Counted from the stretch's first letter, positions 10,367 to 43,559 are shown. The stretch is DNA of 64,000 nucleotides from a virus (IMGVR_UViG_3300037400_002787:1-64000), one strand, 5' to 3'. Translations and numbers: made by a program. The notes: generated from the sequence alone by a model not told the origin.

Positions 10367-10432
10367 AGACGATTATAGAAAGTGAGCGAGAAAACCCAAT
10401 CCCTTAAGTGTAAAGGCAAGCAAAAAAAATAT

Positions 10433-12362: not shown

Positions 12363-13151
12363 ATGAAAAAGTTTGTAGTGTACATGTCGGTTCTGGTTGC
12401 AATGTCATTCATTATGTCTGGATGCAAACATATAGACGGCGAAGGAACTCCAACGGCGAAGACCACAAACACCTATGTTGTAGTTGTTGGTATGGAGAAC
12501 TCTCGGTTTGCAGGAGAGTGTCCAGGGGCGGGATATGATGCGGATAGGATGTACAAACTCCTATCGCAGTACACACCAAATGCCGTTCTTTTGAGAGATA
12601 GCAATGCTACAAAGGCTAATGTTGTAAATGCCCTTCGCAATGCAATCTCTAAGGCGGGGGACGGTCTGGTGATATTCAGTTATTCGGGACATGGAGGAAG
12701 CGAACCTTTCCCGGATACCGGCATTGAAGAGACGGATGGTCATGATGAGTTTCTCTGCCTATGGGACACCTATATGAGAGATAATGAAATATGGAATATC
12801 ATCAACAAGAGTAGCGGACGCATCTTTCTGCTGTTTGACTGTTGCCATTCGGAGACGATGATGAGAAATCCTATGTTCAAGATTGTCCCGCCTCTGTCAT
12901 TCGACCATACAATAACTGAAAATTGCAAGTTCTCTATGCTGTGCTGGTCTGGCTGTCCTGACAACACCTATTCTTATGGGGCTTCTAATGGCGGACAGTT
13001 TACGAATGCTCTTCTAAGGCATTTCAATGCGAGCAAGACCTATGAGTATCTCTGGAATGAAATCAAGAACGACAAAACCCTCCGTGCTTACGAGAATCCA
13101 CAAAGTACGGTCTTGGGAAATGGATTTGCCGCAAAGCCGATATTTAGATGA
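12363..13151 (+). CDS. caspase-like (peptidase C14/CHAT-like) lipoprotein
   Basis: Lipobox ...FIMSGC. Catalytic His in YSGHGG and Cys in LLFDCCHSE (caspase HC dyad arrangement). Confidence 0.55.
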   Translation: MKKFVVYMSVLVAMSFIMSGCKHIDGEGTPTAKTTNTYVVVVGMENSRFAGECPGAGYDADRMYKLLSQYTPNAVLLRDSNATKANVVNALRNAISKAGDGLVIFSYSGHGGSEPFPDTGIEETDGHDEFLCLWDTYMRDNEIWNIINKSSGRIFLLFDCCHSETMMRNPMFKIVPPLSFDHTITENCKFSMLCWSGCPDNTYSYGASNGGQFTNALLRHFNASKTYEYLWNEIKNDKTLRAYENPQSTVLGNGFAAKPIFR

Positions 13152-14178: not shown

Positions 14179-14229
14179 GCGCGAGTTCCCTGATTGGCAA
14201 TAATTAAGAGGATATAGATGGAGCAAGCC

Positions 14230-14510
14230 TGTCAGTGACCCAACCCTGAAGGGTTGGGCTTGCGGGTGAAAGAGACCGCGAGCCTGCGCTGACTAGGGGA
14301 CTAGAAAGGAAACGAAGAAACAGAAATGACAGTAGTAGTTCGAGAGGAATGCATAGGCACCCGTGGATGGTTGTCCAAGTCTGCGGCTCTGCGGTGTGCG
14401 GTTAAACAGCCCTGCGAGGTAGGGGCAGTGCCGCATACAAGAAACCCTCTGGAACGCCCCGATGGGCACCTAACCCGCCTTCGGGCGGTGACTTACCCCG
14501 CAAGGGGTCA
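14230..14510 (+). ncRNA. omega-RNA-like structured scaffold (orphan)
   Basis: Homologous to the 41664-41956 scaffold. Differences are largely paired substitutions in GC-rich stems. Confidence 0.55.
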
Positions 14511-14641
14511 TGCCGCGCGGGAGTGTACCCCCTCCCGCCGTGGCTCTTTTTCGGAACCGAAAACAAACAACAAAAGAGAAAGGAGGATGCGCAATTCCTC
14601 CCAACCCTAAAGGGATTGGGTTCCCTTGCGCATTTTCTATG
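14230..14641 (+). mobile_element. ORF-less IscB-type IS200/605 (HEARO/omega-RNA) element, copy A
   Basis: About 88% identical to the omega-RNA region upstream of iscB at 41664. LE hairpin cccaaccctgaagggttggg (14239-14258), RE hairpin gcgcaattcctcccaaccctaaagggattgggttcccttgcgc (14589-14631). The iscB ORF is replaced by about 80 nt. Ends in tttctATG. Confidence 0.7.
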
Positions 14642-15310
14642 GTAATGTTAAGAGAGAACCAGACAAATACCGTTAAAATCTGTGTAGATGCGTCCATAGA
14701 TGTAGCGGGCTTTTCTCTTGTGCTGGCTGCCTGTGGGGTCATTAGGACGATAGCCGACATCTCGGCGGCAACGCTAAGCGTATCCTATTCTGCGGAAGAG
14801 GTGGCGAGGATAAGCAGTTCCGTTACGTATGGGACCTTGATAGTTTATGATGCCGAGGGAGCGGAGTACATGGAGGTACTCCCACGTTTCCGAAGAACTG
14901 CGGCGGACTGCGTTGGCGAACAGACAATCTACCTGACAATAGCTAGCACGAAAGAAATAGATGGAGGATCGGGGGGTGACACCCCCTCTGGGGATTACGT
15001 TACGCCGCAGCAACTCAATCAGGCGATAAACAGAGCATCACAGGCCGCAAATAGATACACCGATGAAGCCGTTGAGGGCATAGAGACCACGATTATCCAG
15101 GAGCAGCCGGTGCATGTTGTGGATGGGGAGGGACAGCCGATAAGTATGACGGTGCAGGAAGCAGTGCAGCAGATTGTCAATAATAGCGAGGCCATTGAAG
15201 ATGCATCGGAGTCCCATCTGCATGGAAAGGTCAAGGATGAGGACGGCGACGGACAGCCGGACGACGAGACGCTCTATCTGAATTCCGGAAAAGATAGCAT
15301 AGTAATTTAA
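14639..15310 (+). CDS. hypothetical protein; start codon lies in the terminal nucleotides of element copy A
   Basis: ATG 14639 is in frame with ORF 14510-15310. The upstream part of that ORF lies in the non-coding element. Confidence 0.45.
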   Translation: MVMLRENQTNTVKICVDASIDVAGFSLVLAACGVIRTIADISAATLSVSYSAEEVARISSSVTYGTLIVYDAEGAEYMEVLPRFRRTAADCVGEQTIYLTIASTKEIDGGSGGDTPSGDYVTPQQLNQAINRASQAANRYTDEAVEGIETTIIQEQPVHVVDGEGQPISMTVQEAVQQIVNNSEAIEDASESHLHGKVKDEDGDGQPDDETLYLNSGKDSIVI

Positions 15311-15374
15311 CTACTTCAGAAAATTAGGCGGGTGCCTAAAAATTGAAGAAAAACAAGAAAAAGGAGTAATGACT

Positions 15375-16400
15375 ATGGCGAATCCCATAGATGAAACTGG
15401 AGCTAAGTATCTAAGCAAACTTAGCATGAACGGCACTGCCTACACCATTAAGGATGCGTGGGCTCGTGCAGAAATTGATGAGGTGAAGGCGGCCATCTCT
15501 GGTGGAACTCACTTCCTCGGTGTCACGACGACAACTCTGTCCGACGGCGCTACTACCAATCCGATTACCATAGGGGGTGAAAGCGTCACCGCCAAGAACG
15601 GAGACATCGCGCTCTGCTCGGTGACGGAGGGTGGGGCTTCGGTCACGGCGGAGTTCATCTTCGACGGGACGAAATGGCAGCAGTTCGGTACGCAGGGCGT
15701 GCTCAAGGCTCTTGCCTACAAGGACTCCGCGTCCGGCACAGTGGAAATCCCTCTCTCGTCGAACATCTCGGCGGCGGCGTATACTCCGCAGGTGGGCAAG
15801 GGCACTCTGTCCGTAACCACGGTTAGTGGGTCTGTTGGAGCGACAGCAACGGATGCAACCTTTGATTTCACTGCTGCAAATGCAACGCTGTCAACCACTA
15901 CGGCAACGGCTACTGTTGCAACGGAGGATGCTGCGGCTGATGTTACGACAACGGCCACTGCCGCATCGCTGACCTACACGGCTACAACTGTAACGGCTGC
16001 CGGCCCGTCGGTCTCGCTGACCTATACCACGGGTACGTTTACCGCCCTGCAGGACGTGACTTATAACGAGACGACAGCAACGCTGTCCATTAGTTCCGTC
16101 ACCTCGGATGCCTTTACAAAGGTGCCAGGAGTTGAGTCGGTTGGTAATGTCACCGTAACATACGACAAGACCTCTGCCGTTACTTACGACAAGACGACGG
16201 CGGTCACATATTCGGTGGCAACAGGTGCGTCCTATATCAAGGCAACGGGTGTGACCTATGATAAGGTCAGCGCCGTTACCTACGATAAGGCAAGCGGAAC
16301 GTTCCTTTCGCAGGCAAGTCTCGATGGCGACCTTGCGGTCACGGCGGCGGCTCCGACGCTCACCATCACGAACCCGACTGTCACGGTCACGGTTTCGTAA
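15375..16400 (+). CDS. Thr/Ala-rich repeat protein (putative structural or fibre protein)
   Basis: SD aaggagtaatgactATG. Tandem (A/S)VTYDK peptide repeats, T/A/V-rich beta-like composition. Confidence 0.55.
   Translation: MANPIDETGAKYLSKLSMNGTAYTIKDAWARAEIDEVKAAISGGTHFLGVTTTTLSDGATTNPITIGGESVTAKNGDIALCSVTEGGASVTAEFIFDGTKWQQFGTQGVLKALAYKDSASGTVEIPLSSNISAAAYTPQVGKGTLSVTTVSGSVGATATDATFDFTAANATLSTTTATATVATEDAAADVTTTATAASLTYTATTVTAAGPSVSLTYTTGTFTALQDVTYNETTATLSISSVTSDAFTKVPGVESVGNVTVTYDKTSAVTYDKTTAVTYSVATGASYIKATGVTYDKVSAVTYDKASGTFLSQASLDGDLAVTAAAPTLTITNPTVTVTVS
16148..16300 (+). repeat. imperfect 24-nt tandem repeats encoding xAVTYDKx units
   Basis: gccgttacttacgacaagac... recurs about 5 times. 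Confidence 0.5.
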
Positions 16401-16432
16401 GGCAATGGTGGCTATGGCCACGATTGGAAACA

Positions 16433-16476
16433 GGAGGGGAGGGGATTCGAACTCCCCACCCTCCTTTCCTTTTTTA
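16433..16476 (+). terminator. rho-independent terminator
   Basis: GC-rich hairpin ggaggggagggg/ctccccaccctcc followed by tttccttttttat. Confidence 0.75.
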
Positions 16477-16530
16477 TGCGGAAACAATTTTCCTTTGCAC
16501 GGTGTGGCATATAGTAAAGGGAACTAAACT

Positions 16531-16809
16531 TGTCAGCGACCCAACCCTGAAGGGTTGGGCTTGTGGGTGAAAGAGACCGCGAGCCCGCGCTGACTAGGGG
16601 ACTGAAACGAAAGGTAAAACTAAAGTGACAGTAGCAGTTACAGAGGAATGCATAGGCACCTGCGGATGTGAGTCCAAGTCCGCAGCACTGTGGTGTGCGG
16701 TTAAACAGCCCTGCGAGGCAGGGGCAGTGCCGCATGCAAGAAACCCTCTGCAACGCCCCGATGGGCACCTAACCCGCCTTCGGGCGGTGACTTACCCCGC
16801 AAGGGGTCA
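16531..16809 (+). ncRNA. omega-RNA-like structured scaffold (orphan)
   Basis: Homologous to 14230-14510 and 41664-41956. Confidence 0.55.
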
Positions 16810-16940
16810 TGCCACGCGGGAGTGTACCTCCTCCCGCCGTGGCTCTTTTACGAAACCGAGAACAAACAACAAAAGAGAAAGGAGGATGCGCAATTCCTCC
16901 CAACCCTAAAGGGATTGGGTTCCCTTGCGCATTTTCTATG
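16531..16940 (+). mobile_element. ORF-less IscB-type IS200/605 (HEARO/omega-RNA) element, copy B
   Basis: About 93% identical to copy A. Same LE/RE hairpins. Ends tttctATG at 16938-16940. Confidence 0.7.
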
Positions 16941-29296: not shown

Positions 29297-30400
29297 ATGA
29301 CTAACTGTTCGGAGTATGTTTCTACAGCTCATAGCGACAAAACGGCTGATGCCATTGCATCTCACCTGCTTGATGAGTACATCAAGCATGACCCCAAGGT
29401 GAGGTTCGCACTTGAGGTTCAGTTGAAAGACCACATCTGCAACCTTGCGGGCGAGGTCACTTCAACTTGGAAGCCATCTGACGATATTATTGCCGAACTT
29501 GTAAGGGGGGCAATCCGCAAGGTGGGCTACACGGCTGAGTATGCCGCCAAGTGGCCTGAAGGTGCAACCCTTAATGCAGACAAGGTTGTTGTAAACAACT
29601 TCATAGGGCAGCAGTCTCCAGACATTGCACAGGGTGTTGATGTTGACGGATGGGGTGATCAAGGTTGCTTCGCGGGAATGGCCACAAACGAAGAGCGGTA
29701 TAATTACCTTCCTCGCGATGTTTACTTCGCCCGTGAGATTGGCAAGCGGCTTTATCGTGCGGCAAAGGCCGGAACCGCTCCCATCGGACTCGACATCAAG
29801 ACCTTGGTTTCTACTACTAATGCACTCAATGTGGAGCAGGTCATAGTAGCGGCCCCGATGTTGCCCGAGAATGAACAGGAAGCAAGGTCTTTCATTGAGA
29901 AGACCGTGAAGGAAGTCCTTGACGAACGGCATCATATCTGCGACGAAATCATCATCAACGGCACAGGGGCTTATGTAGTCCACTCTTCCGTAGGAGATGC
30001 GGGGGTGGTAGGTAGGAAGTTGGCGGTAGACTTCTACGGGCTGAATTGTCCGATAGGTGGAGGCGCAACTTTTGGCAAGGACGGCACAAAGGCAGATGTG
30101 ACATTGAACCTATATGCTAGATATCGGTCACTCAAGACCATTCTCGCTAGGGGAGGAGTGTTCGACAAGGTGTATACGAAGATTGGGTGCTGCATAGGAA
30201 AGAGCAAGTGCCTTCTGTCACAGGAAGATCAAGACCACAAGATGTTTAACCAAGAGGCTGTTGACATCAAGCCGTCAGAGACGGCAAAGTTGTTCGGTCT
30301 TGATGGAAGTGGTCGTGATGATATGTTCTTCCACCTCTGCGAGGACGGACTGTTTTCGTTTGTGGACGAACTTGCCAAGACGGAAGTGGAGAATAACTAA
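29297..30400 (+). CDS. metK: S-adenosylmethionine synthetase (methionine adenosyltransferase)
   Basis: AHSDKTADAIAS (GHPDKxCDQISD), GQQSPDIAQGVD (GKQSPDINQGVD), GWGDQG (GAGDQG), GDAGVVGRKLAVDFYG, GGGATFGKDGTKADV (GGGAFSGKDPSKVDRS). Confidence 0.8.
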   Translation: MTNCSEYVSTAHSDKTADAIASHLLDEYIKHDPKVRFALEVQLKDHICNLAGEVTSTWKPSDDIIAELVRGAIRKVGYTAEYAAKWPEGATLNADKVVVNNFIGQQSPDIAQGVDVDGWGDQGCFAGMATNEERYNYLPRDVYFAREIGKRLYRAAKAGTAPIGLDIKTLVSTTNALNVEQVIVAAPMLPENEQEARSFIEKTVKEVLDERHHICDEIIINGTGAYVVHSSVGDAGVVGRKLAVDFYGLNCPIGGGATFGKDGTKADVTLNLYARYRSLKTILARGGVFDKVYTKIGCCIGKSKCLLSQEDQDHKMFNQEAVDIKPSETAKLFGLDGSGRDDMFFHLCEDGLFSFVDELAKTEVENN

Positions 30401-31799: not shown

Positions 31800-33280
31800 G
31801 CAATAAGTAGATGAAGTCAGACGAGACCAGGAAGTGCGGATGTTCCGCAGAGAGGCGGCAGAAGGTAAAGGAAAGCCGCAAAGCCACCGCCATCAGGAGG
31901 CGGGGGCAGATGGGTTTCGTCTACGAGTGCAAGATAGTGGAGAGTCGGCTCAACAAGAGGCAGATGGAGGAACTTGAGCGGCTTTTCGTGGAGGGGAAGT
32001 GGTTCTACAACCATGTCTTGTCGCTCCATAGGGAAGGTGTGGGGTTGGGGGAGATTAATGCCACTGCCGTCAAGGAGGTGGGAAGGTTTGACAGGAACCA
32101 CGAGAAGAAGACAGAAAAACTTCAAGTGCTGACCGCTCAGGAGCGGCAGGGGATAATCGCCAGAATGGCCGCCAACGAGAAGACGATATCTGCCCTGGCG
32201 AAGAAGGGGTTGCAGGGAGGCGGGGAGTTGCATTTCCTGTCGGAGATGACGTGCATACCGCTGAAGCAGTACGGTGTGACATACAAGTTCAAGACGCCGA
32301 ACAAGGTGCGGATAGGGGGAATTAGCGGGAGTGTGCTGGTGCGGACTGGCGGACAGTTGGAAGGGGTGGACGAACTGGCGAATGCCAACCTCGTGCATAG
32401 GGCGGACGGCTACTTCCTCAAGGTCACGGGCTTCACAAACATAGAGAATCTAAAACAAACGGAAACGAACGGAAAGGAGATAGGGCTTGATTTTGGAATC
32501 AAGACCAGTGTGACGACATCGGAAGGCGAGAAGATTGACGTGCTAGTTGGAGAAAGCGAACGGCTCAAGCGGCTGCAGAAGGAACTATTCCGCAGGGCAA
32601 AGGGTTCGAACAACAGGTACAGGACAATCAAGAGGATTCGCCGCGAATACCAGAGACTGACGAACAGAAAAACCGACATGGCCAACAAAATTGTCTCGAA
32701 ACTGAAGAAATACAACACGATAGTGATGCAGGACGAGATGATTGTCGGGTGGCACAGGGGACTCTTCGGGAAGCAAGTCCAGCACAGTTGTCTAGGAATC
32801 CTGAAAGAAAAACTCATAAGGCTTCCGCAGACGATAGTGCTCGCCCGTGGAATCCCCACGACCAAGATGTGCCCCGTGTGCAAGACCGTGAACAGGTACG
32901 TCACCCTTGCGGACAGGACGTACAGGTGCGGTTGCGGCTACACCCAAGACCGCGACCTCCATGCCGCAAGGAACATGCTCGTCGTCAAGAATATGGTCTT
33001 TGGAAACAATTTGGAAAAACTACCGCTGGGACGGCGGAAAGTCACGCTCACAGAGTTCCGCACCTCTATCGGAGATGTAACAGTCTCCGACAAGCCGGAA
33101 CGCAGAAGTGGGAAGATGCCATGTCTTTAGCATGGCATAGAGTTCACAGCGGATTCTTCTAGAGAAGCAACTTATTGCAATGGATAAATATGCAACTATT
33201 CTTTTCGCTCGCATAAACCTTGCGGTTGGCGAATATTCTAAAAATAGAGACAAGAATCCATTAATGAGGAGTTCACTATG
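31800..33280 (+). mobile_element. IS200/605-family TnpB-only element 1 (boundaries approximate)
   Basis: Contains the tnpB gene. The 3' flank 33131-33277 is non-coding and would carry the omega/reRNA and RE. Confidence 0.5.
31910..33130 (+). CDS. tnpB: TnpB (OMEGA RNA-guided RuvC-like nuclease)
   Basis: RuvC-I IGLDFGIKT, RuvC-II region VMQDEMIV. C-terminal Zn finger plus RuvC-III CPVCKTVNRY...CGCGYTQDRDLHAARNM. Confidence 0.8.
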   Translation: MGFVYECKIVESRLNKRQMEELERLFVEGKWFYNHVLSLHREGVGLGEINATAVKEVGRFDRNHEKKTEKLQVLTAQERQGIIARMAANEKTISALAKKGLQGGGELHFLSEMTCIPLKQYGVTYKFKTPNKVRIGGISGSVLVRTGGQLEGVDELANANLVHRADGYFLKVTGFTNIENLKQTETNGKEIGLDFGIKTSVTTSEGEKIDVLVGESERLKRLQKELFRRAKGSNNRYRTIKRIRREYQRLTNRKTDMANKIVSKLKKYNTIVMQDEMIVGWHRGLFGKQVQHSCLGILKEKLIRLPQTIVLARGIPTTKMCPVCKTVNRYVTLADRTYRCGCGYTQDRDLHAARNMLVVKNMVFGNNLEKLPLGRRKVTLTEFRTSIGDVTVSDKPERRSGKMPCL

Positions 33281-34535: not shown

Positions 34536-35771
34536 ATGAAACTCAATCCGATAATCAATAGCCTACTTGAAACCGACCAGTACAAGTTTTCGATGGGGCA
34601 GACTATCTACCACCAGTTCAACAAGGATGTGACTACCTGGGCTTTCAAGTGTCGTAACAAGAATGTTGTATTCACACCCGAGATGGTGCAGGAGATTCGG
34701 GAGCAGATTGCTCATTTCTGCACCCTTAGGTTCAAGGAGGAAGAACTGGAATGGATGAAGAATACAATTCCTTGGCTTAGCGGTGACTACATTTCGCATC
34801 TCCGTAGGTGGTATCCTAGGCGGGAGCAGATTTTTGTAGACGATGGAGAGATTACACGGAATTGTGAGCCGTGCGGTATGAGAATTACCGCTACAGGAGA
34901 ATGGCTCGACACTTCCATGTACGAGATACCTATTCTCGCTATTGTAAATGAGGTGTATTTCGCTTTCAAGTATGGTGCAGGAGCCCTAAATCGTGCTGCA
35001 CAGGATAGGTTTGAGAAGAAACTGTCCATGATGAAGAATGGATACTATGCCATTGGATGCTTCTCGGAGTTTGGTATGAGGAGAAGGTATTCCGCCCAGA
35101 TGCAGGATTGGATTGTGGGTAGCCTAGCACACTTCGGTACATCTTTCAACACCTTTGTCGGTACTTCCAATGTCTACCTTGCGAAAAAGCACGGAGTCAA
35201 GCCTGTGGGGACGATGGCACATGAGTTTATCCAAGTTGTGGGACAGGCTCACCACGAGCACAATCCCGCCTACTCCAATCACTATATGATGAAGGCTTGG
35301 GTCAAGGAATACGAGACTGATAATGGCATTGCACTCACGGACACCATTACGACAGACTGCTTCCTTCGGGACTTCAACAAGACCTATGCCACACTTTTTA
35401 GCGGTGTGAGGCACGATTCCAACGACCCGTTTGTGTGGGGCGAGAAAATGATTGCTCACTACAAGAAACTTGGCATCGACCCAATGACCAAGACACTCTT
35501 GTTCTCGGATAGCCTTGACTTTAACAAGGCAACACAGATTCGTAATTATTTTAGCGGCAAGGCAAGAGTTGCATTCGGCATCGGGACATACATTGCGAAC
35601 GACACAGGCAAGGAGCCGCTTAATATAGTGATGAAGGTGATAGAAGCGAATGGCTCACCGGTTGCAAAACTTTCCGATATTGATGGCAAGGGTATGTGCC
35701 GTGATATTGCTTATGTAGACTACCTCCGCCGCACAATCGACTGGCGTCTCGCACACGAGAAGGAGGTGTAA
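34536..35771 (+). CDS. pncB: nicotinate phosphoribosyltransferase
   Basis: LLETDQYKFSMGQ (LLDTDAYKLHMQQ), VGTMAHEFIQ, GIALTDTITTDCFLRDF, GVRHDSNDPFVWGEKMIAHYKKLGIDP, NIVMKVIEANGSPVAKLSD. Near colinear with E. coli PncB. Confidence 0.9.
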   Translation: MKLNPIINSLLETDQYKFSMGQTIYHQFNKDVTTWAFKCRNKNVVFTPEMVQEIREQIAHFCTLRFKEEELEWMKNTIPWLSGDYISHLRRWYPRREQIFVDDGEITRNCEPCGMRITATGEWLDTSMYEIPILAIVNEVYFAFKYGAGALNRAAQDRFEKKLSMMKNGYYAIGCFSEFGMRRRYSAQMQDWIVGSLAHFGTSFNTFVGTSNVYLAKKHGVKPVGTMAHEFIQVVGQAHHEHNPAYSNHYMMKAWVKEYETDNGIALTDTITTDCFLRDFNKTYATLFSGVRHDSNDPFVWGEKMIAHYKKLGIDPMTKTLLFSDSLDFNKATQIRNYFSGKARVAFGIGTYIANDTGKEPLNIVMKVIEANGSPVAKLSDIDGKGMCRDIAYVDYLRRTIDWRLAHEKEV

Positions 35772-35825: not shown

Positions 35826-35853
35826 TTGCATCTTCCACAAAGATATGATACAA
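35826..35853 (+). promoter_or_regulatory. possible promoter for tnpB-2
   Basis: TTGCAT, N16, TGATACAAT. ATG 8 nt downstream. Confidence 0.35.
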
Positions 35854-35861
35854 TACAACCA

Positions 35862-37115
35862 ATGTTGAGAGGAATCCCGATACGTGTGTACCCGAACGAT
35901 GAGCAGAGAGCCTACATAAGTAGGCTCTTGGGCTGTTGTCGTTATGTGTACAACCATCTGCTTGCATTCCAGGAGAAGTTGTTCCTTGAAGAGAAGAGGG
36001 GTGCGAAGCAGTCGGAGATTACAGAATTCTACAATGAAGAGAAAACTCAGAACCAGTTTCTTCGCGAAGTCCACAGCAAAGTGCTTCAACAGTCCCGAAT
36101 AGACTTGCAGACGGCATGGGGAAACTACTTCAAGAGCCTAAAGAAGTCTAGCGGCAAGAAAGCGAACAAACCGATCTACCATAAGAAGGGCATCAAGGAA
36201 TCTTGTAGATTTCCCGTAGATGCTTTCATCGGCATCAGGGGCAACCGAATATCCATCATCAAGCCGTTGCGGGACATGCATTTCAAGTGCAGCAGACGGG
36301 ACGAGCGGTACTTGAACAAACACCAAGACGAAGTGAAGAGCATAACCCTGCGGAAGACGGGCGGTGGTAGGTATTACTGCTCCGTGCTAATAGATGACCG
36401 CCGCATACGGCCGTTGCCAAAGGAAGAGAAAGATGTAGGCATAGACCTAGGTGTGAAGGATTCTGCAATAACATCAGATGGGGACAAGTTCGAGAATCCC
36501 AAGGCATTGGCAAAGGTGGAGAAGCAGATAAAGAGGTGGGAGAGAATCAAGTCCCGTCGAGAGAGGGGAAGCAATAGGCGGAGAATGGCGGTAGCGAGAG
36601 TGTCCCGTCTGCACGAAAGGGCTTCCAACATACGAAAGGATTTCCAGCACAAGGCGACGACCCGAATAGTCCGCGAAAACCAAGCGGTCTATGTCGAAGA
36701 CCTCAATGTGGCTGGTATGATGAAGAACCACAAACTGGCAAAGGCGGTGGCAGATTCCTCTATGAGTGGATTAGTCCGAATGCTGGAGTACAAGTGCAAG
36801 TGGTACGGACGGGAACTGGTGAAGGTTGACAGATGGTATGCCAGCAGCCAGACCTGTTCGTGCTGCGGGTACAAGAACTCCGAGGTGAAGAACCTCAAAG
36901 TCAGGGAGTGGGTATGTCCCAAGTGCGGTAAGCATCACGACCGCGATGTGAATGCGGCTGTGAATGTGCTACATGAGGGGCGGAGAATCAGAGAGAATAA
37001 GGTAGGGCTGAGTTCGCCCGAACCTAACGCTCGTGGACAGGGCAACGGGGGAGTTTCCATGCCGCAAGGTGCGGAGACAGCCGTTCTGGACGAAGCGAGA
37101 AAGGAATGTGCCTAA
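35862..37115 (+). CDS. tnpB: TnpB (OMEGA RNA-guided RuvC-like nuclease)
   Basis: N-terminus [15 protein letters not shown], Ruv[12 protein letters not shown], Ruv[17 protein letters not shown]. Zn finger CSCCGY...CPKCG, Ruv[15 protein letters not shown]. Confidence 0.85.
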
Positions 37116-41392: not shown

Positions 41393-41683
41393 ATGAGATT
41401 AACAGAACTTACCCCCATATTCGTAGACCAAATCCCCGAAGAACTCGAGGATGGGAAAATATATGTCTGCCGTAAATACAAGACGGCAACACATCTCTGC
41501 GCCTGTGGATGTGGTAAAAAAGTTGTCACACCTTTCAAGGAAGGTTTTTGGACATTGACTACTAATGACATAGATAGCAAGGTGACGATGAGACCGTCTA
41601 TCGGGAACTTTGATATTCCGTGCAAGTCGCACTATTTCCTCACAGACAACAAGGTGGAATGGGTGTCAGTGGTCCGACCCTGA
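41393..41683 (+). CDS. hypothetical zinc-ribbon protein; 3' end and stop lie inside the IscB element left end
   Basis: CACGCGKK motif. Stop codon TGA falls within the LE hairpin ccgaccctgaagggttggg. Confidence 0.45.
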   Translation: MRLTELTPIFVDQIPEELEDGKIYVCRKYKTATHLCACGCGKKVVTPFKEGFWTLTTNDIDSKVTMRPSIGNFDIPCKSHYFLTDNKVEWVSVVRP

Positions 41684-41956
41684 AGGGTTGGGCTTGTAAG
41701 GGGAACCGAACAAGCCTGCGCTGACTAGGGGACTAGAAAGGAAACAGAGAAACAGAAATGATAGTAGCAGTTCAAGAGGAATGCATAGGCACCCGTGGAT
41801 GTTTGTCCAAGTCTGCGGCACTGCGGTGTGTGGTTAAACAAGCCTGCGAGGTAGGGCTAGTGCCACACACGATAAACCCTCTTGAACGCCCCGATGGGCA
41901 CCTAACCTCCCCGCAAGGGGAGTGACTTACCCTGAACAAGGGTCAAACCAAAAGCG
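41664..41956 (+). ncRNA. omega-RNA (HEARO-type) scaffold of IscB
   Basis: Non-coding GC-rich paired region directly upstream of iscB. Conserved in two orphan copies. Confidence 0.6.
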
Positions 41957-43222
41957 ATGACATACATAATAGACAGAGACGGGAAGCCATTGATGCCGAC
42001 GAAGCGCGGCAATATGGTTCGTCATCTGCTGAAGAGCGGTGTCGCCAAGGTGGTTCGTTACGAGCCATTCACGGTGATGATACTGCGCGATGTAGGTCAT
42101 TGCGTCCAAGCGGTGACGCTTGGTGTTGATGTGGGGAGCAGGCACATCGGGCTTTCCGCAACGACTGAAAAGAAGGAACTGTATTCCGCACAGGTGGAAC
42201 TAAGGGACGATGTGTCTAAACTTCTGACGGCTCGCAGGGAGTTTAGGAGGGCAAGGCGAGGACGCAAGCACAACTGGTATCGTCCAGCAAAATGGTCTAA
42301 CAGGGCGAATGAGGAGGGCAATGCCGCTCTTCCGCCGAGCATCAAGCACAAGGCTGAATCGCACATTCGGGCGATACGATTTATATGCAGGATGCTACCT
42401 ATTGGCAAGATAGTGGTGGAGATAGGGAAGTTTGATGTACAGAAATTGAAGAACCCCGAAATCCACAACGAGCAGTACCAACAGGGAACATTGGCAGGCT
42501 GGGAGAACCTGAAAGCCTACGCGAAGTATCGTGATGGCTACAAGTGTCGCGCATGTGGGAAGAGCAAACACAAGGATGGCGCGAGGCTTGAAGTCCACCA
42601 CATCATTCGCAAGGCAGATGGCGGTACGGATGTGCCAGAGAATGTAGTAACCTTGTGCGAGGATTGCCATGCGGCTCACCACAAGGGCGAAAGGAAGTTG
42701 AAGTTCCGCCAAGCGCCACAGCACAAGGCGGAAGCCCACATGAATGCGATGCGGAAGTATCTGATAGATGCTCTTTTCTGGTCTGGCAGGAGAATAGATG
42801 TGACCTACGGCTACAAGACGGCAATGGCACGGAGTGAGCATGGCATAGCGAAGTCTCATGCATCTGATGCATACTGCATAGCAGGGAACTTCAGTGCGGA
42901 GCGGAATGACTATAATATGTATCTTCACAAGTTCGTTCGCCGCCATAACCGTTGTCTACATAAGTTCACTATCTTAAAAGGTGGAATCCGCAAGGCGAAC
43001 CAAGCCCCAAAGTATGTGTTCGGTTTTCGGTTATTTGATTGCGCCCGATACAACGGGCAGGATTGCTTTGTGTTCGGGCGTCGGTCGAGCGGTTCTTTCG
43101 ACATACGGACGCTGGGGGGCAAGAAGATTTCGGCTGGGGTCTCGTACAAGAAGCTCAAGCCACTAACTAAGTCAACAACAATTCTAACAGAAAGGGGGAT
43201 GCGCGATTCCTCCCAACCCTGA
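41957..43222 (+). CDS. iscB: IscB (OMEGA RNA-guided HNH/RuvC nuclease)
   Basis: PLMP domain DGKPLMPT, RuvC-I LGVDVGSRHIGLS, Arg-rich bridge helix RREFRRARRGRKHNWYRPAKW. RuvC-II EIGKFD, HNH CRACGKS...HHIIRKADGGTDVPENVVTLCEDCHAAHH, RuvC-III SHASDAYCIAG. Confidence 0.85.
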   Translation: MTYIIDRDGKPLMPTKRGNMVRHLLKSGVAKVVRYEPFTVMILRDVGHCVQAVTLGVDVGSRHIGLSATTEKKELYSAQVELRDDVSKLLTARREFRRARRGRKHNWYRPAKWSNRANEEGNAALPPSIKHKAESHIRAIRFICRMLPIGKIVVEIGKFDVQKLKNPEIHNEQYQQGTLAGWENLKAYAKYRDGYKCRACGKSKHKDGARLEVHHIIRKADGGTDVPENVVTLCEDCHAAHHKGERKLKFRQAPQHKAEAHMNAMRKYLIDALFWSGRRIDVTYGYKTAMARSEHGIAKSHASDAYCIAGNFSAERNDYNMYLHKFVRRHNRCLHKFTILKGGIRKANQAPKYVFGFRLFDCARYNGQDCFVFGRRSSGSFDIRTLGGKKISAGVSYKKLKPLTKSTTILTERGMRDSSQP

Positions 43223-43250
43223 AGGGATTGGGTTTCCTCGCGCAGTTTCT

Positions 43251-43559
43251 ATGAAGGCGAAGAATCACAAGTCAGCATCTAAGGTCATAGCGGAACTTTG
43301 CGGCGACCCTTCGATAGAGAAGGAAGTCAAGTCAAGACTAAGGGCAAAGAGAAGTAAGCCTAAGAAAACCCGCATCATCATAGAACACGGCGACGAGCGG
43401 TACGAAGTAAAGTTCAACCGTGACTGTATGCGGACATGTTCTTTTGTTAAGCACACGCCATATGGTCCGTGCGAAAACTGTTGTTCTCTGCCAAGATGGT
43501 TTGAGAAAATCGTCCAGAAGTTTCCTGAATCACATCTGAAAAGGATAGACAAGGAATAA
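43251..43559 (+). CDS. hypothetical protein; start codon at the terminus of the IscB element
   Basis: ATG 43251 lies within the terminal tttctATG shared by all three elements. Confidence 0.45.
   Translation: MKAKNHKSASKVIAELCGDPSIEKEVKSRLRAKRSKPKKTRIIIEHGDERYEVKFNRDCMRTCSFVKHTPYGPCENCCSLPRWFEKIVQKFPESHLKRIDKE

Follow-up and report, generated by a model that had tools for sequence, protein, structure and literature searches.

ORF-less IscB omega-RNA elements located between Shine-Dalgarno sequence and start codon in a phage genome

Two ORF-less repeats, A and B, in a phage sequence of 64,000 nucleotides (IMGVR_UViG_3300037400_002787:1-64000; this whole stretch is referred to as the window) are most likely non-autonomous, PATE-like elements of the IS200/IS605 type, each with a complete IscB omega RNA. 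Neither contains a protein-coding gene; of the three elements in the window, only C has iscB next to its omega RNA (Table 1). We consider it probable that A and B are PATE-like derivatives and that their orphan omega RNAs act in trans, directing the phage IscB to alleles without the element in co-infecting relatives. The identity of such elements is not new: omega-RNA-bearing, gene-less derivatives of IS200/IS605 elements and an ATG-containing motif (TTCAT) have already been described. What is undescribed in the literature searched is an omega-RNA mini-element that carries both a terminator and a Shine-Dalgarno (SD) sequence and is inserted between the SD and the start codon of a gene.

Omega-RNA elements of the window

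All three elements match the HEARO model (Rfam accession RF02033) on the + strand, with 115.4 bits for A (14231-14474), 117.8 bits for B (16532-16773), and 113.4 bits for C (41665-41906); the gathering score is 83 bits, and each match covers model positions 1-211 of 211. These matches confirm the proposal of the preliminary description that the repeats are IscB omega RNAs. The conserved RNA structure that it anticipated is also borne out: in an alignment of 11 copies, 19 of the 65 predicted pairs were changed on both sides with pairing kept. The two small 3' hairpins beyond the model (alignment columns 247-300) are likewise conserved across the 11 copies, again through compensatory changes.

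End to end, A and B are 92.5% identical (380 of 411 columns in a pairwise alignment), in line with the 93% first given, and they differ at 29 positions and by 2 gaps. Because they differ and because each has its own flanks matching related phages, the two copies are not assembly duplicates, an artefact that had been named as a possible objection. Identity to the region upstream of iscB, estimated earlier at about 88% for both, is 87% in the HEARO part of A but only 81% in that of B; over ~285 nt, the values are 84% and 78%, respectively. A and B resemble C at both ends as well (85% and 86%).

The ends are those of IS200/IS605-type elements, without terminal inverted repeats. The palindrome CCCAACCCTGAAGGGTTGGG lies 9 nt from one end, a different palindrome, CCCAACCCTAAAGGGATTGGG, lies ~20 nt inward from the other, nested within a longer stem, and both subterminal hairpins are retained in the ORF-less copies, as originally described. 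The right ends of A and B read AAAGGAGG, hairpin, TTTCT, ATG. This order had been reported as common to all three elements; C departs from it in its motif (AAAGGGGG) and its tail (GTTTCT).

The product of iscB in element C matches Pfam domains RRXRR (2.1e-51) and HNH (1.7e-12), aligns to IscB chains in PDB with an E value of 1e-45, and keeps the RuvC and HNH motifs (GVDVG, HH, SDAYC). Y1_Tnp (the Y1 HUH transposase, TnpA) was not among the 25 listed of 63 Pfam families in a scan of 119 window ORFs that left out short minus-strand ORFs.

Table 1. Positions of the elements, their parts, and adjoining phage features in the window
Feature	Position	Strand	Remarks
Predicted guide of omega RNA A	14215-14230	+	TAGATGGAGCAAGCCT; left-flank phage DNA with displaced native SD (GGAG)
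Element A, ORF-less	14231-14638	+	408 nt; bounds set by empty site in L036
Omega-RNA scaffold (HEARO) of A	14231-14474	+	First hairpin, CCCAACCCTGAAGGGTTGGG, doubles as subterminal palindrome of that transposon end
Two small 3' omega-RNA hairpins of A	14475-14507	+	Outside Rfam model
Terminator-like hairpin of A	14512-14551	+	GCCGCGCGGGAG...CTCCCGCCGTGGC, then TCTTTTT; particular to ORF-less copies
SD-like AAGGAGG of A	14580-14586	+	Element-borne; directly 5' of right-end hairpin
Right-end hairpin of A	14587-14633	+	Outer stem ATGCGCAA/TTGCGCAT; inner subterminal palindrome CCCAACCCTAAAGGGATTGGG
Phage gene, 223 aa	14639-15310	+	Native start ATG(G) is transposon-adjacent motif of A
Phage gene, 341 aa	15375-16400	+	Between A and B; native, not cargo
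Native phage intrinsic terminator	16432-16475	+	G+C-rich inverted repeat and T-run; downstream of 341-aa gene, upstream of B
Predicted guide of omega RNA B	16516-16531	+	AAAGGGAACTAAACTT; contains displaced native SD-like AGGGA
Element B, ORF-less	16532-16937	+	406 nt; architecture as in A
Terminator hairpin of B	16811-16850	+	
SD of B	16879-16885	+	
Right-end hairpin of B	16886-16932	+	
Tail of B	16933-16937	+	TTTCT
Phage gene, 72 aa	16938-17156	+	Native start is transposon-adjacent motif of B
DUF6527 gene	41393-41683	+	Insertion of C shifted stop codon into element, adding SVVRP
Predicted guide of omega RNA C	41649-41664	+	ACAAGGTGGAATGGGT; 3' end of DUF6527 gene including native SD
Element C, IscB-encoding	41665-43250	+	1586 nt; empty site in L039
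Omega RNA of C	41665-~41945	+	
iscB	41957-43222	+	
SD-like motif of C	43192-43198	+	AAGGGGG
Right-end hairpin of C	43199-43244	+	
Tail of C	43245-43250	+	
Phage gene, 102 aa	43251-43559	+	Start ATGAA is transposon-adjacent motif of C

Insertion sites and gene order

Related phages were reached via homologues of window proteins. Other searches gave little: GenBank phage searches with a 6.7-kb region and with element A returned no matches, exact-protein look-ups of three window proteins returned no record, and a search of viral contigs with the 102-aa protein returned no match. In IMG/VR, a 23-nt omega-RNA pattern had no match and a 19-nt pattern matched only a contig already part of the analysis.

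At each of the three sites, relatives have a left flank that runs straight into the ATG, as seen in L036 and L037 (A and B) and in L039 (C). At site A, the L036 allele reads ...gatggagcaagcct joined directly to ATGGTACTG; at site B, aaagggagcaagatt is joined to ATGGCAATC in L037 and ...aaaaact to ATGGCTAAC in L036. The empty alleles equal the left flank plus the right flank with zero repeated bases, that is, target duplication is absent. Since the left flank abuts the ATG, the elements have the bounds given in Table 1 and the ATG is phage sequence. The preliminary description gave the repeats as 14230-14641 and 16531-16940; the elements end at 14638 and 16937, with the ATG outside. It was right that the downstream gene truly starts at this ATG, whereas the empty alleles contradict its view that the element supplies the codon. 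Insertion of A, B, and C was exactly between the SD of the downstream gene and its ATG.

This ATG has two roles: it is the start codon native to the phage gene and, as ATGR (YCAT on the transposase strand), the transposon-adjacent motif. ATGR adjoins 8 of 8 right ends, and all elements are co-oriented with the flanking gene. The flanking ATG opens an ORF of at least 72 aa in seven of the eight elements (223, 72, and 102 aa for A, B, and C, respectively). The exception is L021, where it is not a gene start and the element lies 12 nt upstream of a gene with its own SD. In IscB/TnpB elements of Geobacillus (ISGst), the motif is TTCAT, which corresponds to ATGAA on the iscB strand (Meers et al. 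2023). The elements described here resemble them in that exactly ATGAA follows the right ends of C, L004, and L021 and ATGR all eight; they differ in that the motif is looser (ATGGT, ATGGC, ATGAG, and ATGAT also occur) and the start codon is in use in 7/8. We also considered T(C/T)TATG as the target sequence and rejected it: the empty sites show that only the ATG belongs to the flank, and the pyrimidine tail tracks element phylogeny, not site.

The left flanks tell a similar story: an SD 4-mer lies 4-11 nt from the junction in 11 of 13, compared with 16.5% of all ATGR sites that the window contains (binomial P = 1.4e-7). A left-flank SD was not seen in distant HEARO elements from sediment metagenomes or Chloroflexi MAGs and is not a general HEARO property.

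Homologues of the flanking genes are conserved. Those of the 223-aa gene in L036, L037, and L002 have the same Met start and their own SD 5-7 nt upstream and are element-free; those of the 72-aa gene in L002 (MARKIV...), L036, and L037 begin at the same Met without an element; and those of the 102-aa gene are 80-100% identical. The 341-aa gene has homologues with 91%, 83%, and 77% identity at the same position in element-free relatives, and the terminator that follows it is conserved in L036 and L037. At site C, we predicted solely from the window sequence and from the end of the Pfam domain (the match stops at residue 91 of 96), in advance of any comparison with L039, that the uninterrupted DUF6527 protein would end in ...EWV and that its stop codon would overlap the next start (GTATGA). 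L039 bears out both: its homologue ends in ...KVEWV, and the TGA overlaps the next ATG.

The two genes between A and B were initially seen as part of a composite transposon or a duplication scar, with the repeats and a 1.9-kb two-gene segment as one unit and the element supplying the ATG. Direct repeats of 92.5% identity around two genes, each ending beside an in-frame ATG, are what such a unit would look like. However, four relatives (L036, L037, L038, and L002) hold the two genes with order and neighbours unchanged and neither element present, and the left flank abuts the ATG at both sites in relatives. Furthermore, as is established for this family, IS200/IS605 elements move as single strands set by two differing ends, and to our knowledge no composite transposons of this kind are known. 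We regard this origin as highly improbable. Because gene order is conserved in element-free relatives, comparison with these phages identifies A and B as independent, separate insertions.

Short elements, their terminator hairpin, and their right end

The approximately 80 nt that take the place of iscB in A and B had been read as an iscB remnant. Alignment found no similarity between this stretch and iscB; the ORF-less copies carry instead a conserved terminator-like hairpin, a U-run, and an A-rich spacer. A simple terminator scan missed the + strand hairpin owing to a bulge, and it was found by folding (-22.8 kcal/mol predicted for A). It is kept with its U-run in five of five ORF-less copies (A, B, L012, L018, and L021), including L018, where the stem has another sequence and still folds (-30.3 kcal/mol). 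If efficient, a terminator within the orphan elements would lower transcription of the gene directly downstream. We also looked at the possibility of a hidden small protein, as all five copies have an open frame of ~94 codons that runs to the stop codon located in the loop of the right-end hairpin. It was dropped: the amino acid sequence is not conserved, with L012 shifting to another frame partway, and this G+C- and purine-rich sequence leaves other long frames open as well.

Could the ORF-less copies be inert relics that lost iscB by internal deletion, their conserved features reflecting slow decay? The lack of a transposase among the listed Pfam families fits this idea, as do the 7.5% divergence between A and B, which are hence not recent copies, and the missing target of guide B among the relatives found. 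Nevertheless, the ~410-nt architecture is common to L012, L018, and L021, which come from mutually unrelated metagenome contexts, and the deletion endpoints and the terminator hairpin recur with it; separate deletions would neither share endpoints nor gain one hairpin unlike iscB. Substitutions, moreover, preserve the omega-RNA stems (the 19 compensatory pairs) and the terminator stem. The recurrence in three unrelated contexts indicates that the short form itself has spread, and the pairing preserved through substitutions points to continued selection on the RNA. Relics are therefore an unlikely explanation, and the shared architecture marks the ORF-less mini-element as a separate lineage.

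Orphan omega RNAs have been described before: gene-less PATEs (palindrome-associated transposable elements) of Geobacillus stearothermophilus often encode them (Meers et al. 2023). Thus, the missing iscB does not bar A and B from the RNA family. Like other HEARO/IscB omega RNAs, those described here match the full model, stand immediately upstream of iscB in C, and begin at the transposon end with the guide in the flank; A and B differ in having no adjacent iscB and in ending in their own terminator-like hairpin rather than continuing into an iscB mRNA. Their likeness to PATEs consists of ends as in the full element of the same genome, the absence of a gene, and an omega RNA that would be used in trans. 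Unlike PATEs, they reside in a phage genome, have a dedicated terminator and an SD-like motif, and sit at an SD/ATG junction; we found no description of these further features in the literature searched.

At the right end, an SD-like motif (AAGGAGG, AAGGAGC, or AAGGGGG) followed by hairpin, pyrimidine tail, and ATG is kept in all eight elements. The hairpin has three pairs with compensatory changes (RNAalifold, 8 copies); read on the bottom strand, it forms the left-end palindrome in the transposase sense, ~20 nt away from where cleavage occurs. SDs are used by 43-54 of the 77 window ORFs. Since insertion parts the downstream gene from its own SD, we propose that the element-borne AAGGAGG would recruit ribosomes from the base of the right-end hairpin, at a distance of 5-6 nt and one helix from the ATG, and that such a replacement SD would allow a genome of high coding density to tolerate insertions at start codons. 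In genes 38 and 25 of phage T4, a hairpin draws a remote SD close to the start codon. The right ends are like these genes in having a stable hairpin between SD and start and a short spacing when folded; in contrast to them, the SD is predicted to lie within an extended stem, and the module is on a mobile element rather than a gene.

We infer that the element may act as a translation-initiation module for the downstream gene, although not in the manner first suggested, by which folding of the hairpin simply brings the SD near the ATG. In the consensus fold of all eight copies, AGGAG is base-paired to the pyrimidine tail that immediately precedes the ATG; GGAGG has an unpaired probability of ~0-0.1, and the predicted opening cost is 6.1 kcal/mol (A, B) or 3.4 kcal/mol (C). 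As a free SD, this almost fully paired motif may be nonfunctional. Conservation of the motif could also reflect constraints other than translation, because the region lies within the transposon end and encodes the IscB C-terminus in full elements; the iscB stop codon sits in the right-end hairpin loop of C, so this stretch is coding there. It is conceivable, if less credible to us, that the arrangement is no translation module but a by-product of the DNA structure of the transposon end and, in full elements, of IscB C-terminal coding, or else a means of repressing the downstream gene, with the SD sequestered and the AUG abutted. Start-codon insertions would then persist only because extragenic ATGR sites are nearly all start codons. 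Besides the pairing and the coding overlap, the position of L021 ahead of a gene having its own SD and the distant HEARO elements without left-flank SD agree with such an origin. On the other side, the downstream genes are intact and conserved even though their own SD is now 0.4-1.6 kb away, and therefore some initiation signal must exist. AAGGAG(G/C) is retained in the five ORF-less copies, which encode no protein; the five basal pairs are mostly G-U, which on the transposase (bottom) DNA strand would be C-A and would not form; the SD, the helix, the 5-6 nt, and the AUG always keep the same spacing; and the T4 genes offer a precedent.

Guides, element-free targets, and homing

The transposon end delimits the omega RNA, and the guide lies outside the element (Meers et al. 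2023). Following this placement, we took the 16 nt directly 5' of the scaffold start as the predicted guides. Predicted guide A matches the empty allele of L036 at 15 of 16 positions, followed by ATGGT, and that of L037 at 14 of 16. Predicted guide C matches L039 at 16 of 16, followed by ATGAAGGC, and both L041 and L042 at 15 of 16, followed by ATGAAC. For predicted guide B, there was no match within 4 mismatches at its site among the relatives examined, and no self-target for any guide was present in the window. Transcription of guide B is put in doubt by the strong native terminator upstream (16432-16475) together with the absence of a detectable sigma-70-like promoter near element B on the + strand. 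The suggestion that the orphan omega RNAs program the IscB encoded in trans is plausible. The HEARO-part identities of A and B given above are also those of their scaffolds to the iscB-linked scaffold, and their fit with this IscB is an assumption.

In the mechanism that we propose, transcription of the co-oriented upstream phage genes would continue across the 16-nt left flank and enter the scaffold. Three omega RNAs would result, with the SD-plus-spacer sequences of three phage genes as their guides. A single IscB would be loaded with all three, the two orphans in trans, and would cut element-free alleles that have a guide match and ATGR, either in related phages infecting the same cell or where a copy has lost the element. 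Recombinational repair would then copy the element back into the cut allele. ATGR is required twice, by this family for insertion and by IscB on the 3' side of its target; an occupied allele would be immune because the motif is displaced.

For OMEGA systems, "transposon non-restorative homing" has been proposed (review, PMC13565253). The parallel with OMEGA homing and with phage homing endonucleases, whether free-standing or intron-encoded, is that the nuclease would cut an element-free relative and repair would copy the element, and guide-matching alleles do exist in metagenomes. The difference from phage homing endonucleases is that the target would be specified by RNA, with one nuclease gene, three guides, and three loci, and that homing is proposed here. 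A further, more speculative step is to view the whole set as a natural multi-guide, RNA-programmed gene drive, in which one iscB and three dispersed omega-RNA genes, two of them self-contained mini-transposons with a terminator, would direct IscB against element-free rival phages; we hold this to be a tentative idea that may well prove wrong. If it is true, rivals lacking the elements would be cut at several start-codon junctions simultaneously, and they would be converted or their markers excluded; the replacement ribosome-binding site would spare the carrier, as self-splicing introns render their insertions harmless.

The combination of a terminator, an SD/start-codon position, and an SD on the element itself would account for the persistence of such elements in genomes that have hardly any non-coding DNA. 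A and B offer compact, naturally stand-alone omega-RNA expression units. Together, an element-carrying phage and its guide-matching, element-free relatives, a pairing undescribed in the literature searched, offer a natural system for the study of RNA-guided homing between co-infecting phages, which has so far been mainly theoretical.

Three HEARO elements and their boundaries

An Rfam search of the whole window returned exactly three matches, all to HEARO (RF02033) on the + strand, each covering the full model and scoring 113-118 bits (gathering score, 83). The repeats are thus IscB omega RNAs, as the preliminary description had proposed. The third match is followed by a 421-aa ORF with Pfam RRXRR and HNH domains, which matches solved IscB structures at E = 1e-45 and keeps the RuvC and HNH catalytic motifs; no iscB-type ORF is present in copies A and B. 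These two are 92.5% identical to each other, and the 88% identity to the iscB-linked copy claimed for both holds across the HEARO part for A (87%) but not for B (81%). The suggestion that substitutions preserve the RNA structure is supported by two-sided changes that maintain 19 of the 65 consensus pairs among 11 related omega RNAs. Elements A, B and C are members of the HEARO/omega-RNA family and also of the IS200/IS605 family, A and B in the gene-less form termed palindrome-associated transposable element (PATE). According to Meers et al., omega RNAs are often encoded by gene-less PATEs, and the transposon end marks the limit of the IscB omega RNA, whose guide is encoded beyond it.

Coordinates of the elements and of other features in the window
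Feature	Position	Strand	Remark
Right-end-like fragment	10375-10411	-	37 nt
Caspase-like gene	12363-13151	+	Peptidase_C14; counterparts L037 1395-2183, L038 1364-2146
Guide A	14215-14230		16 nt
Element A	14231-14638	+	HEARO match 14231-14474
Open frame in A	14326-14610	+	~94 codons
341-aa gene	15375-16400		between A and B
Guide B	16516-16531		16 nt
Element B	16532-16937	+	HEARO match 16532-16773
Open frame in B	16625-16909	+	~94 codons
S-adenosylmethionine-synthetase-like gene	29297-30400		Pfam
TnpB gene 1	31811-33130	+	Pfam OrfB_IS605, Cas12f1-like TNB
NAPRTase gene	34536-35771	+	Pfam
TnpB gene 2	35826-37115	+	Pfam OrfB_IS605, Cas12f1-like TNB, HTH_OrfB_IS605
DUF6527 gene	41393-41683	+	upstream of element C
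Guide C	41649-41664		16 nt
Element C	41665-43250	+	HEARO match 41665-41906
iscB	41957-43222		421 aa

Homologues of the 341-aa protein, whose gene lies between A and B, are 91%, 83% and 77% identical to it. The contigs that carry them (L036, L037 and L038), together with the more distant contigs L001 and L002, conserve the gene order with neither element present. For site C, the empty allele was predicted before L039, a related contig, had been seen: given the window sequence and where the Pfam DUF6527 domain stops, the DUF6527 protein should end in ...EWV-stop, its TGA overlapping the next ATG (GTATGA). L039 agrees exactly. Together, the empty sites define the element spans listed in the table.

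Occupied and element-free junctions
Site	Left flank, window	Right flank, window	Relative	Left flank, relative	Right flank, relative
A	...GATGGAGCAAGCCT	ATGGTAATG	L036	...GATGGAGCAAGCCT	ATGGTACTG
B	...AAAGGGAACTAAACTT	ATGGCTATC	L037	AAAGGGAGCAAGATT	ATGGCAATC
C	...ACAAGGTGGAATGGGT	ATGAAGGCG	L039	...ACAAGGTGGAATGGGT	ATGAAGGCG

The ATG had been read as the last part of the element. Relatives without the element join the left flank to this ATG at all three sites; thus, there is no target duplication, and the ATG is the native start codon of a phage gene. ATGR follows the right end in 8/8 lineage members examined (the three in the window and those on contigs L003, L004, L012, L018 and L021). In Geobacillus IscB/TnpB elements the transposon-adjacent motif is TTCAT (Meers et al.), which is ATGAA on the iscB strand, and element C is likewise followed by ATGAA. 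By this correspondence, the terminal ATG is the motif needed for insertion and IscB targeting, and it lies outside the element.

As a result of the IscB-element insertion, the DUF6527 reading frame now stops within the first hairpin of element C, and the window protein has five extra residues (SVVRP) relative to its L039 homologue. On the related contigs L043 and L044 (both at 1194-2504), a TnpB gene lies directly upstream of a homologue of window gene 43251-43559 that differs from it at the N-terminus; L039 and L041, another related contig, have other small genes in place of this TnpB. The gap that follows the DUF6527 gene appears to be a hotspot of gene exchange and of mobile elements.

The ORF-less form

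Elements A and B had been interpreted as a composite transposon or duplication scar, and the roughly 80 nt in place of iscB as its remnant. Neither interpretation survives. The same gene order is kept in four element-free relatives, and A and B are therefore two separate insertions. The ~80-nt stretch has no similarity to iscB and consists instead of a hairpin (about -23 kcal/mol in the predicted fold), TCTTTTT and an A-rich spacer; these U-runs occupy 14545-14551 in A and 16844-16850 in B. Scanning metagenomes with an omega-RNA pattern of 19 nt identified three further ORF-less elements of 408-424 nt (L012, L018 and L021) with the architecture of A and B and unrelated flanks; the L018 hairpin has a different stem sequence and a more stable fold (-30.3 kcal/mol). 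Recurrence of one architecture in unrelated flanks indicates that the short form is a lineage that spread as such. Simple deletion as the origin of A and B was rejected in view of the terminator-like hairpin and this recurrence. The short form resembles a self-contained omega-RNA gene that has a terminator of its own and is enclosed by transposon ends, and it fits what Meers et al. call a PATE.

Each of the five ORF-less elements contains an open frame of ~94 codons that runs from the A-rich omega-RNA loop to a stop in the right-end hairpin loop, the same stop that iscB uses in full elements. The encoded amino acids are not conserved (with a change of frame in L012), and the frame is probably non-coding. 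Elsewhere in the window, a short intergenic gap holds an inverted fragment of 37 nt that resembles the right-end hairpin (3' half) together with its tail (AAGGGATTGGGTTTTCTCGCTCACTTTCTAT) at 81-86% identity. AATC, not ATGR, follows this fragment, which is probably the remnant of an old insertion; L003 contains a similar inverted fragment (1704-1745).

The right end and the start-codon niche

All eight right ends share one layout: AAGGAGG (or AAGGAGC, AAGGGGG), a directly adjoining 45-47-nt hairpin, 5-6 pyrimidines (TTTCT in A and B) and the ATG. The hairpin comprises an outer stem, ATGCGCAA/TTGCGCAT, with compensatory variants, and an inner subterminal palindrome. The proposal that this hairpin brings the Shine-Dalgarno sequence (SD) close to the start codon holds in part: the SD would stand one helix plus 5-6 nt from the AUG if five weak pairs open. 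However, the predicted fold pairs GGAGG with the pyrimidine tail, mostly through G-U, so that the SD is not free (predicted unpaired probability ~0-0.1; opening cost 6.1 kcal/mol in A and B, 3.4 in C). On the one hand, this pairing speaks for a rival reading of the arrangement as a by-product, or as a repressor of the downstream gene. On the other hand, insertion displaced the native SD by 0.4-1.6 kb and yet the downstream genes are still intact and conserved; therefore, some substitute initiation signal is needed, for which the element-borne SD is the obvious candidate. The right-end hairpin loop of full elements contains the iscB stop codon, and terminating ribosomes could thus open the structure there. 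Separation of SD and AUG by a hairpin has precedents in phage T4 genes 38 and 25. The putative translation role of the element-borne SD is regarded as likely.

In 7/8 cases an ORF of 72 aa or more begins at the flanking ATG; in the exception, L021, the gene has its own SD and start 12 nt further downstream. An SD-like 4-mer occurs 4-11 nt before the junction in 11 of 13 left flanks, versus 16.5% of window ATGR sites (P = 1.4e-7), which identifies the junction as the SD/ATG boundary of a gene. SDs are in use in this phage, with 43-54 of the 77 long window ORFs carrying one. The flank signature is absent from more distant HEARO elements sharing the first hairpin, which ties it to this sublineage or to its phage habitat. 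The SD/ATG pattern must be partly survivorship, because in a near-all-coding genome the ATGR sites that tolerate insertion are mostly start codons.

Phage setting and proposed trans-guided homing

Nearly all long ORFs of the window are on the + strand, and its Pfam content is that of a typical large phage (DnaB-like helicase, DNA polymerase III beta clamp, dUTPase, RNA ligase, NAD-salvage enzymes and Tad2-like proteins); its relatives include one IMG/VR contig of 251 kb. The NAPRTase, NAD synthase, NUDIX-domain, S-adenosylmethionine-synthetase-like and two Tad2-like (anti-Thoeris) genes look like a candidate counter-defence and NAD-restoring set. The caspase-like gene, two genes upstream of element A, is conserved within the phage group. 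Strong SDs as frequent as in the window would be unusual with a Bacteroidota host; a distant homologue of the 341-aa protein (P0060, 35% identity) lies on a 275-kb contig labelled Prevotella sp. MAG by one source. With two TnpB genes, one IscB and two orphan omega RNAs, this phage segment carries at least five OMEGA-type units, and the Pfam families listed for the window include no Y1 transposase.

Read-through from co-oriented upstream genes may produce omega RNAs with the left flanks as 16-nt guides, and the one IscB could use all three, assuming that scaffolds A and B are compatible with it. IscB would cut element-free alleles, and repair would then copy the element in. This would match what a 2026 review (PMC13565253) discusses, for co-infecting phages, as 'transposon non-restorative homing'. 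Judged by sequence match, targets for guides A and C exist in nature: for guide C, L039 agrees at 16/16 positions, with ATGAAGGC next, and contigs L041 and L042 at 15/16, with ATGAAC next; for guide A, L036 agrees at 15/16 and continues with ATGGT. Self-targets are absent from the window, because GTCAG rather than ATGR comes after the guide in occupied alleles. No target of guide B was found among the relatives fetched; element B is preceded by a strong native terminator, and no promoter was recognised nearby on the + strand. The internal terminator of the orphan elements could lower transcription of the downstream gene.

The literature searched contained no description of a dedicated terminator in an omega-RNA element, of an SD-hairpin-pyrimidine right end, of precise SD/ATG insertion in phage genes, or of a single phage iscB with two orphan guides, alongside guide-matching empty alleles in relatives. 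The main value of these elements is that they offer a natural setting in which RNA-guided homing between phages can be tested.
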